Below, piece after piece: positions 5,417-35,705 of a stretch of 42,292 nt of DNA. A program made the translations under genes and the position numbers. Within the stretch, counting starts at the first letter, position 1, and every line of letters begins with the position of its first letter. This DNA comes from a virus (lineage: Duplodnaviria; Heunggongvirae; Uroviricota; Caudoviricetes). Under the pieces are notes generated by a model, which worked only from the letters and a program-made list of their open reading frames with translations, had not been told where the DNA came from and searched no databases. The DNA lies in IMG/VR virus record IMGVR_UViG_2651869755_000015, positions 1 to 42,292 of that record; one strand, given 5' to 3'.

Positions 5417-5497
5417 AACTTGTTACCTCGGTCTGTTATCGTTGAGGTAATAATTATGCGTATCTGGTTTGATGTCAATAGATATGAGTTAAAAAAA

Positions 5498-5512
5498 TTA
5501 CCCGTTAGGTAA
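5498..5512. promoter_or_regulatory. Operator-like palindrome TTACCCGTTAGGTAA (OL-equivalent)
   Basis: Perfect TTACC-N5-GGTAA dyad between the repressor gene end and the leftward early operon. Confidence 0.55.
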
Positions 5513-5523
5513 TCAAATAGGCA

Positions 5524-5548
5524 ATAAAAAAGCCGCCAGAAGGCGGCT
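5524..5548 (-). terminator. Rho-independent terminator downstream of repressor gene
   Basis: Stem AGCCGCC/GGCGGCT with AGAA loop, followed on the minus strand by a T-run. Confidence 0.6.
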
Positions 5549-5569
5549 TACTTACTGAAAAATATGATT

Positions 5570-6154
5570 TTATTGTTTGCTTTTTTCGTTCTGGTTGATG
5601 ACAAATTCAATGTAACTTTCGATCTTTGCCTTCTCTGTTTCAGGTAACAATGCGTAGCGCGAGCGGTCATAGTTGATAGTTGCAGGGTCATGCGGATGAA
5701 TCAGTAGTTCATATCCGTGACGCCCGAATGCAGATGCAACATTCTCCAGGGTGGAAATGGAAACGCTGACCTCATTGTTTAACAGGCGGCTGATTGTCAC
5801 CTGGGCGACGCCGGATGCGCGGTGAAGTTTTCCCTGAGTTGAAAGGTCGCGGCTTTCGCTCATCCAGCGTTCCAGGTTGTGAGCCGCCAGCTGACCAATG
5901 TCGCTTGGGCCGACAGGCTGAAAACCTTCCTGAGAAAGCGAGCGATCGATATCAAGCCAGTTACGGGGTTTATTGGCGGCAGCTTCAATTTTTCGCGCAA
6001 CCTGGTCGCCGATAACCTTCTTGCCAAGAGCCCAGCGGTTTACCAGATTTGCCTGAGTTCCAAGTTTTTCAGCCATCCGCGTCTGAACACCATTGAATTC
6101 ACGGTCGATCAAGTCGTTGAGATTTTGCCTGCGGACGTCCTGGATACTTTTCAT
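5570..6154 (-). CDS. Prophage repressor, tandem HTH (XRE-type), no obvious peptidase S24 domain
   Basis: 194 aa; two HTH-like segments (VQTRMAEKLGTQANLVNRW; VAQVTISRLLNNEVSVSISTLENVASAF); divergent from a Cro-like gene with three operators between them; no Ala-Gly/Ser-Lys autocleavage signature seen. Confidence 0.65.
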   Translation of the reverse strand: MKSIQDVRRQNLNDLIDREFNGVQTRMAEKLGTQANLVNRWALGKKVIGDQVARKIEAAANKPRNWLDIDRSLSQEGFQPVGPSDIGQLAAHNLERWMSESRDLSTQGKLHRASGVAQVTISRLLNNEVSVSISTLENVASAFGRHGYELLIHPHDPATINYDRSRYALLPETEKAKIESYIEFVINQNEKSKQ

Positions 6155-6209
6155 TTTCTGGAAAATCGCCTCATATCTGAATCAGAAGATGATTCAATTT
6201 AAAGCAATA

Positions 6210-6272
6210 TTACCCAACAGGTAAATGCACCTCATGGGTAACTATCCTTGATTTTTGTTACCTTATAGGTGA
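6210..6272. promoter_or_regulatory. Divergent immunity promoter region with three operator-like dyads (OR-equivalent)
   Basis: TTACCCAACAGGTAA (6210-6224), partial CACCTCATGGGTAA (about 6229-6242), TTACCTTATAGGTGA (6258-6272) between the repressor and cro-like start codons. Confidence 0.6.
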
Positions 6273-6308
6273 ATATTTATTATCTGAAATAAATATCAGG
6301 CAATAGCT

Positions 6309-6539
6309 ATGAGCGATAACGGACATTTCGATTTCAAAAAGCACTGGCTTGCACTTACTCCGGATGAGCGTGAAGCCTTCGCACAGGAAGCCGGAACGAC
6401 GAGTCACTATATCCAGACTCACTTAACAGGTAAGCGCAAAATGCCAGGTAAGGTATTGATGGATGGGCTTTTTAAAGCCTGTAAATCAAGACAATGGCTG
6501 CGCTCAAAAGCAGAACTGGCATACTTCTTCTACTCATGA
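6309..6539 (+). CDS. Cro-like small HTH regulator
   Basis: 76-aa protein divergent from the repressor; followed by a terminator hairpin. Confidence 0.55.
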   Translation: MSDNGHFDFKKHWLALTPDEREAFAQEAGTTSHYIQTHLTGKRKMPGKVLMDGLFKACKSRQWLRSKAELAYFFYS

Positions 6540-6560
6540 TATCCAGCCACAACCCTCTGT

Positions 6561-6584
6561 AGACCGCCATCCGGCGGTCTTTTC
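6561..6584 (+). terminator. Rho-independent terminator after cro-like gene
   Basis: Stem AGACCGCC/GGCGGTCT, loop ATCC, followed by TTTT. Confidence 0.55.
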
Positions 6585-6594
6585 ATATCTATTC

Positions 6595-6609
6595 GTACCT
6601 CAAAGGTAA
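6595..6609. promoter_or_regulatory. Operator-like dyad GTACCTCAAAGGTAA (one mismatch)
   Basis: Near-perfect copy of the TTACC-N5-GGTAA dyad upstream of the gene at 6690. Confidence 0.4.
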
Positions 6610-8540: not shown

Positions 8541-8617
8541 TTACCTTAGAGGTAATAAAATATTCTAAAATCTATTGATTTCGTGTCTTATGTGGTTTTT
8601 AATTACCTAAGGGGTAA
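8541..8617. promoter_or_regulatory. Two operator-like dyads upstream of the 8621 gene
   Basis: TTACCTTAGAGGTAA (8541-8555) and TTACCTAAGGGGTAA (8603-8617); CTTATGTGGTTTTT motif between them. Confidence 0.55.
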
Positions 8618-12470: not shown

Positions 12471-12503
12471 TTACCACAACGGTAACTATTACCACGGTGG
12501 TTA
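12471..12503. promoter_or_regulatory. Operator-like dyads immediately upstream of terS
   Basis: TTACCACAACGGTAA (12471-12485) and a degenerate copy TTACCACGGTGGTTA (12489-12503) within ACTATTACCAC direct repeats. Confidence 0.5.
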
Positions 12504-15202: not shown

Positions 15203-15279
15203 TGGCGTGGCATGCAGGATTCGAACCTGCGACCAACCGCTTAGAAGGCGGTTGCTCTGTCCAACTGAGCTAATGCCAC
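15203..15279 (-). tRNA. tRNA-Arg (anticodon UCU)
   Basis: Minus-strand 77-nt sequence GTGGCATTAGCTCAGTTGGACAGAGCAACCGCCTTCTAAGCGGTTGGTCGCAGGTTCGAATCCTGCATGCCACGCCA folds as a cloverleaf (7-bp acceptor stem, GTTCGAATC T-loop, anticodon loop CTTCTAA, 3' CCA). Confidence 0.85.
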
Positions 15280-15601: not shown

Positions 15602-15616
15602 TTACCTGAAAGGTAA
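15602..15616. promoter_or_regulatory. Operator-like dyad TTACCTGAAAGGTAA upstream of the structural operon
   Basis: Perfect dyad, identical to the site at 35706-35720; followed by CATATGTGGTTAAATTGGTAAT. Confidence 0.55.
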
Positions 15617-32652: not shown

Positions 32653-33516
32653 TTATTTCCTGCCACTTCTGTAGTATATGTTGCGACCATTTTTGGTCAC
32701 ATTAACAACATGACCCTTTGTTTCTACTTTGTTATTGGTTGCCTTATATACTTCAAAGTCAAACCATGATATATGACTTATTTCGTCTATAGATACCATA
32801 ATTTCTAGACCTTGAACTTTCTTTTTGCTTATCCCTTTTATCGCAGCACTGCGCTTAATTTGGATTTCACCTGGGTAAGCGTTTGTAAATGTAACAGATA
32901 AATTTTCTTTGTTTCTGTACCCTGACATTAAAGGAACAAAAGATATGTGTTGGTGTGGCCCTTGATTTTCCGTTGGCTCACCAGAACCATTTATTATTCC
33001 AACGTATACTTTATTTGATGATAAAGTAATTAACATTGGTTTCTTAGGATCTGATTCGATTGCATCAAGCAATAGCAAATCTAAAGAACCCTGGGAGTAC
33101 GTTTTTCGCAATACTCTAGCTTTCATTGCCTCTGATATTTTGTCATAAATATCACGTTTATAAAAACAACCTAAAAGAAGATCTTTTAGCCAAACAAAAG
33201 ATACATAACACAAAGAGAAGCAAATTGATGTGACTGACAGAAGAAGTAGCCACATGTAAATTCTATCTGTTTCTGGTTTTGACGTTACATTAAAAGTTTC
33301 CACCATGTCGTGAACTAGGTGAAAATCAGGATATTTACATTTTATAAATGCGGCAATTATTACTGAAGCAACAAGGCAATATGTACCTAATGCAGCTACT
33401 TTCATATAAAGAAGCTGGCCTTCATGTCGGTATAAACGGAAATAATGATACTGGTTAGCGGTTATCATAATATAACCACTAACCAGAATGGGGATAATTA
33501 GAAGAGCTAACAACAC
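32653..33516 (-). CDS. AT-rich multi-pass membrane protein, accessory
   Basis: 287 aa; about 3 hydrophobic helices in the first ~110 residues then a soluble domain; GTG start overlapping the upstream stop (TAGTG). Confidence 0.55.
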   Translation of the reverse strand: MLLALLIIPILVSGYIMITANQYHYFRLYRHEGQLLYMKVAALGTYCLVASVIIAAFIKCKYPDFHLVHDMVETFNVTSKPETDRIYMWLLLLSVTSICFSLCYVSFVWLKDLLLGCFYKRDIYDKISEAMKARVLRKTYSQGSLDLLLLDAIESDPKKPMLITLSSNKVYVGIINGSGEPTENQGPHQHISFVPLMSGYRNKENLSVTFTNAYPGEIQIKRSAAIKGISKKKVQGLEIMVSIDEISHISWFDFEVYKATNNKVETKGHVVNVTKNGRNIYYRSGRK

Positions 33517-33725
33517 TATTTCCTTACAGTGGCAAGATCCTGTTTAACAATTGCAGCAGCGAGACGACGCATCTCTTTAACCTCAGGAAGCTCAGAAATT
33601 TGCTGTGATGAGATATATACTCCACCACGCTTGTTAACCTGCGCTGACGCCGGAACTTCTGCATTTTTTGCCTGAGGGCTGGGTGCATTATCCCTCGTTT
33701 TTGTACGAGCGAACCAAAATCCCAT
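33516..33725 (-). CDS. Hypothetical small protein (69 aa), first gene of the accessory operon
   Basis: Normal-GC ORF translationally coupled to the membrane protein; operator dyad upstream. Confidence 0.4.
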   Translation of the reverse strand: MGFWFARTKTRDNAPSPQAKNAEVPASAQVNKRGGVYISSQQISELPEVKEMRRLAAAIVKQDLATVRK

Positions 33726-33751
33726 ATCTCCTCCTCATGTAAACACATGGT

Positions 33752-33766
33752 TTACCTTTAGGGTAA
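33752..33766. promoter_or_regulatory. Operator-like dyad TTACCTTTAGGGTAA
   Basis: Perfect dyad in the 113-bp spacer upstream of the accessory operon; preceded by ACACATGGTT. Confidence 0.55.
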
Positions 33767-33838: not shown

Positions 33839-34573
33839 TCAGAAGAACCCTGCCTTGTCGTTGATGTACTCCGCGTGGGTCTGGATATCACGCAGGCATT
33901 TGCTCACACCGACGATGTAGCAGAACATGGTGGTCAGCTCCGCCGCCGCGCCCGATACGTCGTGCCCGTCTTCCTGTAACTGGTTCAGCAGATTCATCAG
34001 CAGTGAGTTCTCCGTCAGGCCGAGAACACCAGACGGCGAATGAATCAGGCTGCGGTAGCCGGGCTTCAGTGGGGCACTGTATTCTTTTTTGTCTTCCAGC
34101 TTGATCGCCTCCATAATGGCGGGCATGAATTTTTCAATTACCTGAGTGGCCTTTGATAAATCAGCTCCACCTGAGAGACGAACATCTCCACTGACATTTG
34201 CGGGTTTTCTGTCGAAGTAGCAATCTTCCAGTTTTTCGAAGACCTCCCACGCTTTTTCAGTCTCAAGAATTTTCGCATGTCGTGCTGCACCGCGAGCGGT
34301 CCATAAGAAAAGATGACTTACTTTTGGTGCAATATTAAGCAAACCTCTTTGAGAGGACTCGTTCTTAAATGCTCGTAATTCTTCGCCTATCAGCTTGAAA
34401 CAATGTTTTCCCTCAATGAATCGATCTGCATTTCGTTGATAGTTTTGACGAATCAGTTTGGGTTCTGTGTCATACAAATCAGCAAGCATTTCTGTAGTCA
34501 TTACAGGGATGTTGCAATGAGTTGTTATCGGCAACTTATCAATAGCTATATTACGCATTTTCATTGCCTCCAT
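33839..34573 (-). CDS. Antirepressor-like protein (ORF6N/Ant N-terminal domain plus C-terminal domain)
   Basis: N-terminal VMTTEMLADLYDTEPKLIRQNYQRNADRFIEGKHCFKL matches the ORF6N/Ant pattern; C-terminal ~70 aa homologous to the 35372-35629 product. Start may be 34558 or 34564. Confidence 0.65.
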   Translation of the reverse strand: MEAMKMRNIAIDKLPITTHCNIPVMTTEMLADLYDTEPKLIRQNYQRNADRFIEGKHCFKLIGEELRAFKNESSQRGLLNIAPKVSHLFLWTARGAARHAKILETEKAWEVFEKLEDCYFDRKPANVSGDVRLSGGADLSKATQVIEKFMPAIMEAIKLEDKKEYSAPLKPGYRSLIHSPSGVLGLTENSLLMNLLNQLQEDGHDVSGAAAELTTMFCYIVGVSKCLRDIQTHAEYINDKAGFF

Positions 34574-35057
34574 CTTTCACGACGAAATAGCAATTATCTT
34601 TATAATCTAACTGGATGAACTTTATGTTTTCAGGGAGTTTTACAGAAAGAGTTTTTGCACAAGCAAAACCAAAATCTGCGCCAGAAGCATCCATATACCT
34701 TAATAATTGTTTTAATGCTGAAGGAGAAAAAGTATCTACCTTCACCTCAACAGGGTAACCATCTTTTGTTTTTAGGTCTGGTTGACCTGGTCCACCAAGT
34801 ATTTCAGCGTTAAGGTATTTTGCTATTTCTGGATAAGCGTTGTATTCAGAGCGTAGTTTTGCCTTGTTATCGACTGCTAGTTGCATAAGATGATCAAACA
34901 AATTGGTATCTAAATCTGCCCCTTCATCCCACATTCTATTTCTACAGCTAATCAATTCACTGACCAGTGGTGCACTTTCTTGCCTTAGCATAAGAAGGAG
35001 TGGAGAATTAGAAATTAACCAATACAGATCGTCGTTTGAGATTTTTTGGCCTGGCAT
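34551..35057 (-). CDS. Hypothetical protein (168 aa) co-transcribed with antirepressor
   Basis: ORF with stop overlapping the ant start region. Confidence 0.45.
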   Translation of the reverse strand: MPGQKISNDDLYWLISNSPLLLMLRQESAPLVSELISCRNRMWDEGADLDTNLFDHLMQLAVDNKAKLRSEYNAYPEIAKYLNAEILGGPGQPDLKTKDGYPVEVKVDTFSPSALKQLLRYMDASGADFGFACAKTLSVKLPENIKFIQLDYKDNCYFVVKDGGNENA

Positions 35058-35211
35058 AGCGATACCTCTACTAGTAAGTTACCCACCACCGCAACGCCAA
35101 TTGCTGGTGGTGAACTGGACAAGGTTGGCGTACCGGCCTAGTAGGTACCGGCGCACCTTTCGGTGCCCCTGCCCAGCCCACCATAATTCGGATATGACTG
35201 TGCTATACGCA

Positions 35212-35235
35212 TAAAAAAACCACGTCTGGCGTGGT
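35212..35235 (-). terminator. Rho-independent terminator downstream of small antirepressor gene
   Basis: Minus strand ACCACGCCAGACGTGGT followed by TTTTTTT. Confidence 0.55.
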
Positions 35236-35325
35236 ATGCGCCTACTAGTAATCCGGGACGCCAATCCCGGCACTGGATTTTGCCAGTGCCTGATTACTAT
35301 GGCACAAGAGGAGTGCGATGTAAAT

Positions 35326-35340
35326 TTACCGCAAAGGTAA
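35326..35340. promoter_or_regulatory. Operator-like dyad TTACCGCAAAGGTAA
   Basis: Perfect dyad in the structured noncoding spacer 35058-35371. Confidence 0.5.
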
Positions 35341-35371
35341 ATATAAGCACTCCACTTGGTAATTGCAAACC

Positions 35372-35629
35372 TTATCTGGTTTGCTTTCGTAATTGTTCGG
35401 CACAATAGTCGAGATGTGTTTGCAGATCCTGCATAGACATCTGTGAGCTGGTGACGTAGTTAATCAGTGCAGTCAGTTCGGCAAGTGGGCCATCGACATT
35501 AAATCCATCCTTATCGAGATCCCGGAGTAATTTCATCAAGTGCGATCCCTCCACCAGTGACCTGACGCCTCCCGGCGTGTGAATCCTTTCGGTAAATCCG
35601 TCTTCCAGTGGATAGTGATACTGCTGCAT
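35372..35629 (-). CDS. Small antirepressor-like protein (homolog of Ant C-terminal domain)
   Basis: ATG at 35629 after GGAGAAG (track uses TTG at 35647); IHTPGGVRSLVEGSHLMKLLRDLDKDGFNVDGPLAELTALINYV aligns with IHSPSGVLGLTENSLLMNLLNQLQEDGHDVSGAAAELTTMFCYI of the 244-aa Ant; LexA box 22 bp upstream. Confidence 0.5.
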   Translation of the reverse strand: MQQYHYPLEDGFTERIHTPGGVRSLVEGSHLMKLLRDLDKDGFNVDGPLAELTALINYVTSSQMSMQDLQTHLDYCAEQLRKQTR

Positions 35630-35650
35630 CTTATCTTCTCCATGCAATAA

Positions 35651-35666
35651 CTGTATATTTATACAG
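35651..35666. promoter_or_regulatory. LexA (SOS) box CTGTATATTTATACAG
   Basis: AACTGTATATTTATACAGTA matches the E. coli LexA consensus TACTGTATATATATACAGTA at 18 of 20 positions, with perfect CTGT-N8-ACAG. Confidence 0.7.
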
Positions 35667-35705
35667 TATCAAATAATTTGTTTGCTATCCAGCACGTTTC
35701 GCAAA

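Follow-up and report, generated by a model that had tools for sequence, protein, structure and literature searches.

Probable RNA control elements of the antirepressor operon in a Uetakevirus-like Escherichia coli prophage

The window analyzed here (the whole stretch of DNA, 42,292 nucleotides of the IMG/VR virus record IMGVR_UViG_2651869755_000015) contains a 314-bp spacer at positions 35058-35371, which separates a small gene from a 168-aa ORF in the antirepressor region, and the question that this locus raises is whether the spacer has a regulatory function and, if so, of which kind. An earlier note on this DNA had listed three hairpins, a minus-strand terminator and an operator dyad in the spacer, and had suggested that a regulatory RNA or a second promoter for the antirepressor operon could lie there, in analogy to the antisense sar RNA of phage P22. 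All of the listed features were found in the sequence, with one hairpin displaced by 1-2 nt.

The prophage and the genes around the spacer

The element that hosts the spacer is an integrated, podovirus-like E. coli prophage of the Uetakevirus (epsilon15/phiV10-like) kind. In the region 34900-35700, it is 97% identical to Escherichia phage HEMP4 (a value that applies to the 77% of the query that was covered), 92% identical to phiV10 and 78% identical to Enterobacter phage Tyrion, and the full arrangement described below was present in 22 of 5,426 complete E. coli genomes. The elements of the spacer lie on the minus strand, on which it is preceded by an ORF of 85/91 aa (35372..35647, minus strand; phrog_450) and followed by the 168-aa ORF, hereafter ORF168 (34551..35057, minus strand, with its ATG at 35057; phrog_18738). 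The 85/91-aa ORF resembles the downstream antirepressor in the C-terminal part of the latter, with 44% identity. An SOS (LexA) box (35649-35668) is found ahead of this small upstream ORF, and the tailspike gene adjoins the antirepressor operon. No RNA genes are annotated in this region in phiV10, in Tyrion, or in one RefSeq copy of the E. coli prophage, which is 99.6% identical and belongs to one of the 22 genomes carrying the full arrangement.

ORF168 is followed by the gene for an ORF6N-type antirepressor of 239 aa (33839..34558, minus strand, with its ATG at 34558), which was identified by matches to Pfam ORF6N (1e-18) and to the anti-repressor family phrog_1760 (1e-97). An overlap of 8 nt (ATGCGTAA) joins the start of the antirepressor gene to the stop of ORF168, and RefSeq likewise calls this 720-nt gene with the 8-nt overlap. 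ORF168 itself had no significant match in Pfam, PADLOC or PDB sequence searches, and a tblastn search with it returned nothing among 50,697 phage records. Its homologues form 11 clusters, all of which are enterobacterial, and in the four other genera examined (five genera in total) it was each time located between c4 and the ORF6N Ant gene. The AlphaFold2 model of ORF168 was poor, with a mean pLDDT of 43.9 from an 8-sequence alignment; a putative PD-(D/E)xK-like motif was noted in the protein.

Two RNA families and promoter-like sites in the spacer

The statement that the spacer holds no credible ORF was right in substance. Although a 108-aa ORF can be drawn mechanically across it, an alignment of 8 relatives showed no codon periodicity, with 42, 43 and 45 variable columns at the three codon positions (p = 0.98), as well as many 1-2-nt indels, and a protein-coding spacer was therefore rejected. 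What the spacer does contain are two curated RNA families, C4 and isrK, both above their Rfam gathering thresholds and both with E values of about 1e-13, so that a probable regulatory RNA for the ant operon, as had been suspected, is indeed present.

The c4 antisense RNA (35188..35103, minus strand) matched RF01695 with 76.7 bits (gathering score 45) over model positions 1-87 of 87, with E = 2e-13 for the whole window. This 86-nt three-helix RNA at 35103-35188 is the largest structure of the spacer and had been overlooked in the earlier note. Alignment to the annotated c4 of P1 predicts a mature RNA of 77 nt (35182..35106, minus strand), and this 77-nt core folds at -46.2 kcal/mol with z = -4.95, a stability that none of 200 shuffled sequences reached. 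The minimum-energy fold is the family consensus, in which a long closing stem encloses hairpin 1 and hairpin 2, the latter with an open 9-nt loop, and a junction is left single-stranded. In an alignment of 17 loci, compensatory changes were observed in 12 of the 25 consensus pairs. The C4 motif has long been predicted to occur across Enterobacterales and Caudovirales, and the c4 literature, as summarized, describes processing by RNase P at a GGW motif and occlusion of the ribosome binding site (RBS) by the sequence termed b'. In the window, the motif AUGGU has its GGU at the position aligned with the mature 5′ end of P1 c4, and CACCACC is present at the 3′ end. By analogy, c4 would be processed by RNase P to about 77 nt (35182..35106).

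Upstream of c4 lies an IsrK-like leader or small RNA of 77 nt (35289..35213, minus strand), which matched RF01394 isrK over its full length (model positions 1-77 of 77) with 68.1 bits (gathering score 50). It consists of two hairpins, a linker and an intrinsic terminator, folds with z = -2.96, and holds the c4 target sites a1 and b1. A third family, RF03163 c4-a1b1, matched at 35302..35250, overlapping the 5′ part of the isrK match, with 43.6 bits; this is narrowly under its gathering score of 46.7, and the same family was just under the gathering score in 11 of the 14 related loci with a match. Two of the hairpins described earlier were confirmed at their exact positions and are parts of this RNA, CACTGG/CCAGTG (35271-35288) being its hairpin 1 and CCGGGA/TCCCGG (35253-35270) its hairpin 2, with a1 in the loop.

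The minus-strand terminator noted previously corresponds to the intrinsic terminator of the IsrK-like RNA (35213..35235, minus strand), in which the hairpin ACCACG-CCAGA-CGUGGU is followed by U7; the stem occupies 35235..35219 and the U-run extends to 35213. Both hairpin and U-run were kept in 19 of 19 loci examined, although the stem sequences differ, the terminator being defined in this comparison by its U-run. In the window, the predicted probability of the terminator hairpin was 0.12 in the free RNA and rose to 0.97 when the b1 linker was blocked, which suggests a competition between linker and terminator. Since the free-RNA probability was below 0.5 in just 5 of the 19 loci, this competition is not a conserved predicted property.

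The remaining hairpin, CACCACC/GGUGGUG, also exists, but it is located at 35084..35112 on the minus strand and not at 35083-35110 as had been given. It appears in the predicted fold of the 250-nt read-through leader (z = -4.07 for the whole leader), where it carries the c4 target site a2 in its loop and shares its 5′ arm with the 3′ end of the closing stem of c4. Both of its arms are invariant in 8 relatives, and the hairpin is also found in Gifsy-1, in which the layout of isrK, terminator, C4 and antirepressor is identical to that of the window.

A second promoter had been the other proposal for this spacer, and a promoter-like site was found at 35296..35324 (minus strand), with the sequence TTTACA-17-CATAGT, an extended -10 TG and a predicted start at about 35289. 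Its -10 element ends 7 nt upstream of the first position of the Rfam isrK model, and hence of the 5′ end of the IsrK-like RNA. In the 8 relatives TTGTGCCATAGT is invariant and TTTACA nearly so, and the extended -10 TGcCATAGT is likewise invariant in relatives. An additional promoter-like site further upstream, TTGCAA-17-TATATT (35368..35340, minus strand), has 9 of 12 matches and is partly conserved. The -10 and start region of this upstream site is overlapped by the dyad, a TTACC-N5-GGTAA palindrome that was confirmed as TTACCGCAAAGGTAA exactly at 35326-35340 and is not assigned to either strand. It is one of 15 dispersed copies in the window, compared to 0.71 expected, and 15 copies were reached in none of 100 shuffles. 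Two of these copies are located between a 194-aa HTH_3 repressor gene (5570..6154), which lacks an S24 peptidase domain, and a 76-aa ORF that diverges from it, while among the 8 relatives the half-sites of the spacer dyad are invariant and the bases between them vary. The 15 copies, two of them beside the repressor gene, suggest that the dyad is most likely a putative operator, at which the prophage repressor would bind.

Complementary sites and their co-variation

Two exposed patches of c4 find complements both upstream and downstream of it, all of them on the minus strand. The first patch, b' (CCUACUAGG, 35145..35137), is in the loop of c4 hairpin 2, and the second, a' (ACGCCAA, 35131..35125), is in the single-stranded junction. 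Within the IsrK-like RNA, a' is complementary to a1 (UUGGCGU, 35264..35258) in the loop of hairpin 2, and the b' loop is complementary to b1 (CUAGUAGG, 35248..35241) in the single-stranded linker before the terminator. In the leader of ORF168, the target of a' is a2 (UUGGCGU, 35100..35094), in the loop of the CACCACC/GGUGGUG hairpin, and the b-type site b2 (CUAGUAG, 35074..35068) is located just upstream of ORF168. The Shine-Dalgarno sequence of ORF168, GAGG (35068..35065), lies 7 nt before the ATG at 35057 and shares just one base with b2, which would form a duplex of only 7 bp in the window; both points speak against the model of control given below. Each of the four sites matches a' or b' by perfect complementarity over 7-8 nt, and all four together were found in none of 5000 shuffles. 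The combined pattern TTGGCGT-N(5-35)-CTAGTAG occurs at the two target places and as the c4 complement and nowhere else in the 42 kb, with 0.00 expected.

We compared these sites across 21 related loci, which included phiV10, Tyrion, HEMP4, APSE-7, Hafnia phage yong2, Salmonella phage 118970_sal3, several Stx phages, Yersinia phage vB_YpM_39, Aaphi23, P1, Gifsy-1, and four prophages (of Klebsiella, Enterobacter, Salmonella and K. aerogenes) that were located via ORF168 homologues. All loci in the Rfam scan had a C4 match above the gathering threshold, and all except Aaphi23 (36.1 bits against 50) also had an isrK match that exceeded its own; P1 was outside the Rfam scan, its c4 being taken from the GenBank annotation. 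Among 17 loci (the window and 16 phage records), the b' loop occurred in 16 different versions and the a' junction in 7, and the complementary runs between a patch and its own targets had means of 6.9-8.2 nt, compared to 3.9-4.5 nt for non-cognate combinations. The patches and both pairs of targets changed together in prophages of E. coli, Klebsiella, Enterobacter and Salmonella, in Stx phages, in APSE, in Gifsy-1 and in P1.

The joint changes of b', b1 and b2 could be read from an alignment of 8 Uetakevirus-type loci. In the window the triplet is CCTACTAG (b'), CTAGTAGG (b1) and CTAGTAG (b2), and HEMP4, though 97% identical, differs from it in all three jointly, with CCACTTAG as b' and CTAAGTGG as both b1 and b2. 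The corresponding sequences are CCTTTTAG (b') and CTAAAAGG (b1 and b2) in phiV10 and K. aerogenes, and CCGTTTAG (b'), CTAAACGG (b1) and CTAAACG (b2) in the Enterobacter and Salmonella prophages. Similarly, the a' variants ACGCCAA, AGACCAA and GTTCCAA are each paired with a matching a1 and a2. This comparison indicates that the c4 interaction sites co-evolve with their targets. Loss of the hairpins in related prophages had been named as one observation that would speak against a regulatory RNA; the hairpins are kept in the relatives, and the interaction sites in addition change in concert. The presence of hypervariable b' loops with matching b1 and b2 among near-identical prophages is consistent with specificity switching.

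RNAcofold predicted no pairing of c4 with its targets at equilibrium, both RNAs staying folded separately, which is expected for loop-loop contacts that this program models poorly, and duplexfold of c4 with the targets was uninformative because it unfolds everything.

Probable control of the operon and its known relatives

The mechanism of the immI operon of P1 and P7, with its c4 antisense RNA, icd and ant1/ant2, has reportedly been described. In P1 immI, c4 is excised from the transcript, pairs with a2/b2 and blocks ribosome entry. According to the GenBank annotation of P1, the order of elements is that of the window, namely an operator, two promoters, a1, b1, c4, a2, b2 at the RBS of the first ORF, and an overlapping antirepressor gene. 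Both loci appear to combine an operator-controlled upstream promoter with a second promoter ahead of a1/b1 (Oc4, P2c4 and P1c4 in P1), the upstream promoter-like site and the dyad of the window being the positional analogue of P2c4 with its operator Oc4. The two c4 RNAs are alike in their three-helix fold, in which b' occupies a hairpin loop and a' the junction, as well as in their mature form (predicted in the window) of 77 nt, which starts with GG and finishes with CCACC, and the geometry of b2 and the RBS matches that of b2/icd. ORF168 is the first gene of the probably c4-controlled operon and occupies the position of icd. In contrast to P1, for which no terminator is annotated between b1 and c4, the window has an intrinsic terminator there; its first ORF encodes a protein of 168 aa that is unrelated to the 73-aa Icd of P1; its antirepressor is of the ORF6N type and not Ant1/2; its operator is a TTACC-N5-GGTAA palindrome and not an asymmetric 17-bp C1 site; and the element is an integrated podovirus-like prophage, whereas P1 is a plasmid prophage.

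The families, the structures and the co-varying sites thus point to control of the P1/P7 immI and Gifsy-1 IsrK type and not of the P22 sar type, and we consider it probable that the spacer controls, through c4 and an IsrK-like decoy leader, an antirepressor operon of the P1/P7 immI type. According to this model, minus-strand transcription would begin at about 35289, from the promoter adjoining the repressor operator dyad, and most transcripts would end at the intrinsic terminator, yielding the 77-nt IsrK-like RNA with a1 and b1. Read-through transcripts would contain c4, from which RNase P would excise the 77-nt RNA (35182..35106) as in P1. The exposed patches of c4, b' in the hairpin loop and a' in the junction, may then pair with b2 and a2 in the ORF168 leader, and since b2 abuts the Shine-Dalgarno sequence, this pairing would block ribosome binding and turn off the translation of ORF168. 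The translation of the ORF6N antirepressor would also be turned off, as its start overlaps the ORF168 stop. In this way, c4 would repress antirepressor synthesis and, by analogy, confer immunity specificity. With the same a and b sites, the IsrK-like RNA could titrate c4, consistent with the activator role shown for IsrK in Gifsy-1.

Two quite different readings of the spacer had to be weighed against this one. A P22 sar-type RNA would be a plus-strand small RNA that crosses the operon start and pairs over its full length with the mRNA. The general context resembles that of P22 immI, in which a small RNA limits antirepressor synthesis in a podovirus and the antirepressor operon likewise lies beside the tailspike gene. 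However, sar is a cis-antisense RNA made from the opposite strand across the ant start, and nothing similar was seen in the window: the plus strand of 35058-35371 has no promoter-like or terminator-like site, the sole plus-strand terminator-like site being outside, at 35396-35413; the Rfam matches at E <= 10 were limited to C4, isrK and c4-a1b1, with no sar family; the five ORFs that were scanned on that side of the tailspike gene where ant lies (91, 168, 244, 69 and 287 aa) showed no Arc/Mnt-type Pfam match; and all conserved structures are read on the minus strand. The analogy drawn in the earlier note is therefore wrong, because both RNAs are on the ant strand and would act via short complementary patches, and a sar-type RNA is highly improbable here. 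It is scarcely credible that the spacer is a mere 3′ untranslated region with the terminator of the 85/91-aa gene, or codes for the 108-aa ORF, with no dedicated RNA function. The terminator does lie about 140 nt past the upstream gene and the 108-aa ORF does cross the spacer, but two curated RNA families match, their stems and target sites co-vary, and the codon pattern and the frequent 1-2-nt indels among the relatives speak against a coding function.

The alternatives that deserve more weight draw in part on the homologous Gifsy-1 locus (isrK-orf45(STnc1160)-anrP), in which our scan found isrK, then a C4 match of 69 bits, then anrP. As in the window, isrK and its terminator are followed by C4 and then the antirepressor, the a1/a'/a2 sequences (UUGGCGU/ACGCCAA) are identical, b2 is fused to the Shine-Dalgarno sequence, and the CACCACC/GGUGGUG hairpin surrounds a2. 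The two loci differ in that the Gifsy-1 antirepressor follows directly after c4, without ORF168, in the specificity of b' (CGGUGAU in Gifsy-1), and in their neighbours, which are antQ and isrJ in Gifsy-1 and the tailspike gene and the LexA-boxed small ORF in the window. Base-pairing in Gifsy-1 was proven by compensatory mutations of G28/G31 with C162/C159 (PMC4825925); this helix maps onto a1:a', with sequences identical to those of the window. IsrK supplied in trans was found to raise anrP translation approximately 100-fold (PMC4825925).

The published Gifsy-1 model, which differs in detail from our preferred explanation and speaks against it, invokes alternative cis structures and a translated orf45 over c4 and no processed c4 repressor. 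In this model, the read-through transcript adopts a silent fold in which a1/b1 pairs in cis with the c4 region; IsrK opens this fold in trans, a small ORF is then translated, starting from the AUG that is conserved at the c4 5′ end, and translational coupling activates the downstream genes. We regard this as a possible account of the window: it has experimental support in the homologous locus, the isrK score is above threshold, and the window has a 37-codon ORF that starts at this AUG (35184) and ends with a UAG within b2, 13 nt upstream of the ATG of ORF168. However, the small ORF has only 14 codons in HEMP4, the closest relative, and in P1, 15 codons in Tyrion and APSE-7, and 8 in YpM39, the stops being inside c4, and a conserved, orf45-like upstream ORF over c4 was rejected on account of these frames of 8-15 codons; the reading frame is thus not conserved in the closest relatives of the window. 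In addition, the predicted RNase P cut between AU and GG would remove the start codon of the small ORF, the compensatory changes in the c4 stems are of the RNA type, and Gifsy-1 itself contains a stable processed RNA, STnc1160.

An attenuation of the kind exerted by the CI RNA of P4, besides or instead of the RBS block, is somewhat doubtful. Here c4 would bind the nascent a1/b1 and favour the IsrK terminator, giving negative feedback on its own synthesis and on the ant mRNA. The P4 CI RNA (with seqA/seqC) is processed from the leader of its own operon, as is predicted for c4, and pairs with one upstream and one downstream site; it causes transcription termination, a mode that is weakly indicated in the window, and the Gifsy-1 authors described IsrK as a structural homologue of seqA (PMC4825925) and themselves raised the possibility of such attenuation. 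In the predicted folds, the b1 linker of the window competes with the terminator; in Gifsy-1, the expression of a transcriptional fusion increased 8-fold with IsrK in trans, and basal expression was higher when a1 was mutated in cis (PMC4825925), the latter being an outcome that a pure decoy role of a1 does not predict. On the other hand, a low free-RNA terminator probability was confined to those 5 of 19 loci, equilibrium folding is poorly informative on co-transcriptional choices, the Gifsy-1 co-expression test gave this mode no support, and P1 has a1/b1 without an annotated terminator before c4.

Returning to the preferred reading, the RBS block by c4, it may also be combined with attenuation, two modes that have so far been described separately. 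In such a dual mode, which we put forward speculatively and consider unlikely, c4 would act at a2/b2 by blocking the RBS, as in P1, and would also bind the nascent a1/b1 and favour the IsrK terminator as in P4, while the terminated IsrK-like RNA would titrate c4. This would be a self-balancing switch made of RNA only, operating below the LexA box and the repressor operators and gating both the antirepressor and a new, conserved 168-aa cargo protein with its putative PD-(D/E)xK-like motif.

The arrangement of isrK, C4 and antirepressor is already known, and the copy in the window is an ordinary, textbook-type module. In APSE phages, isrK and C4 upstream of a BRO antirepressor have been annotated (LR794151; PMC7313666), with the same three-part arrangement and co-varying a and b sites as in the window, although the a' and b' sequences and the antirepressor family are different. 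The APSE annotation swaps the labels a' and b' relative to P1. Specific to the window and its kind are the lack of annotation in the Uetakevirus records and in the RefSeq prophage copy examined, the separation of a1/b1 from c4 by an intrinsic terminator, as in Gifsy-1 and unlike P1, the conserved 168-aa ORFan that holds the icd position in five genera, and the SOS box ahead of the small upstream ORF, which together are modest distinctions.

These findings fill a gap in the RefSeq and GenBank records of the region, from which the RNA genes are missing. They also join two literatures that lack clear cross-citation, since 'orf45/STnc1160' of Gifsy-1 scores as a c4 RNA and the Gifsy-1 helix proven by mutation is the a1:a' pairing of the P1 model. 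For the biology of this prophage family, the control region described here probably explains how the antirepressor is kept silent, and if the dual mode were true, the hypervariable b'/b1/b2 triplets would represent RNA-encoded immunity types in Uetakevirus-like prophages.

Distribution of the probable operator palindrome

The palindrome TTACC-N5-GGTAA, the probable operator of the prophage repressor, occurs 15 times in the window (nine exact copies and six with one mismatch), against an expectation of 0.71. The copies lie at 5436-6609, 8541-8617, 12471-12503, 15602, 31810, 33752, 35326, 35706 and 39331, and are spread over the genome, clustering around the 194-aa HTH_3 repressor gene (5570-6154). 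This scattered arrangement looks like a dispersed operator regulon similar to that of P1 C1. One exact copy (33752-33766) is located just 3′ of the antirepressor gene, where it precedes a minus-strand 69/74-aa ORF (phrog_5739; 33516-33748) and a 287-aa ORF (phrog_3630). The copy at 15602 is adjoined by a minus-strand tRNA gene (15206-15279; Rfam tRNA, 73.3 bits).

Annotation of the isrK and C4 RNAs in related phages

In several lambdoid phage records, a single annotated CDS covers the isrK match, its terminator and the C4 match (L005, 1288-1971; L006, 1131-2273; L011, 825-1970; L014, 873-1895), under names such as 'Ash family', 'transcriptional regulator', 'peptidase' and 'Ant'. The conserved c4 AUG in these four records shares its reading frame with the downstream gene over at least 77 codons, and the start codons of the annotated CDSs are probably over-extended. 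The 'orf45/STnc1160' region of Gifsy-1 (34131-34316) gave a Rfam C4 match of 69 bits; in the sections consulted, the published IsrK study (PMC4825925) likens this region only to P4 CI and seqA, and does not name c4. Upstream of C4 in the Aggregatibacter phage Aaphi23, a match to AaHKsRNA82 (1048-1128; 99 bits) overlaps a weak isrK match, and AaHKsRNA82 is probably the local equivalent of the IsrK-like leader with its a1 and b1 sites.

Genes flanking the spacer

The minus-strand 168-aa ORF (34551-35057) is a member of an ORFan family that comprises only 11 clusters, every one from enterobacterial prophages. In all four of the related prophages that were examined, it separates c4 from the ORF6N antirepressor. 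The family shares an invariant stretch, GGPGQPDL-x-TK-x-GYPVE-x-K, which resembles a PD-(D/E)xK nuclease motif and may be considered a putative one; the AlphaFold2 model of the protein was poor (pLDDT 44).

On the other side of the spacer, a minus-strand 85-aa ORF (35372-35629, ATG at 35629) resembles, at 44% identity, the C-terminal 80 residues of the ORF6N antirepressor. Approximately 20 nt 5′ of the Shine-Dalgarno sequence and ATG of this ORF lies a LexA box close to the consensus, TACTGTATAAATATACAGTT (35649-35668), which is kept in six of the eight aligned relatives. The Gifsy phages have SOS-controlled inducers, as does coliphage 186 with Tum. Since the prophage repressor carries no S24 domain, the LexA-boxed 85-aa ORF may, by analogy with these phages, be the SOS-controlled inducer.
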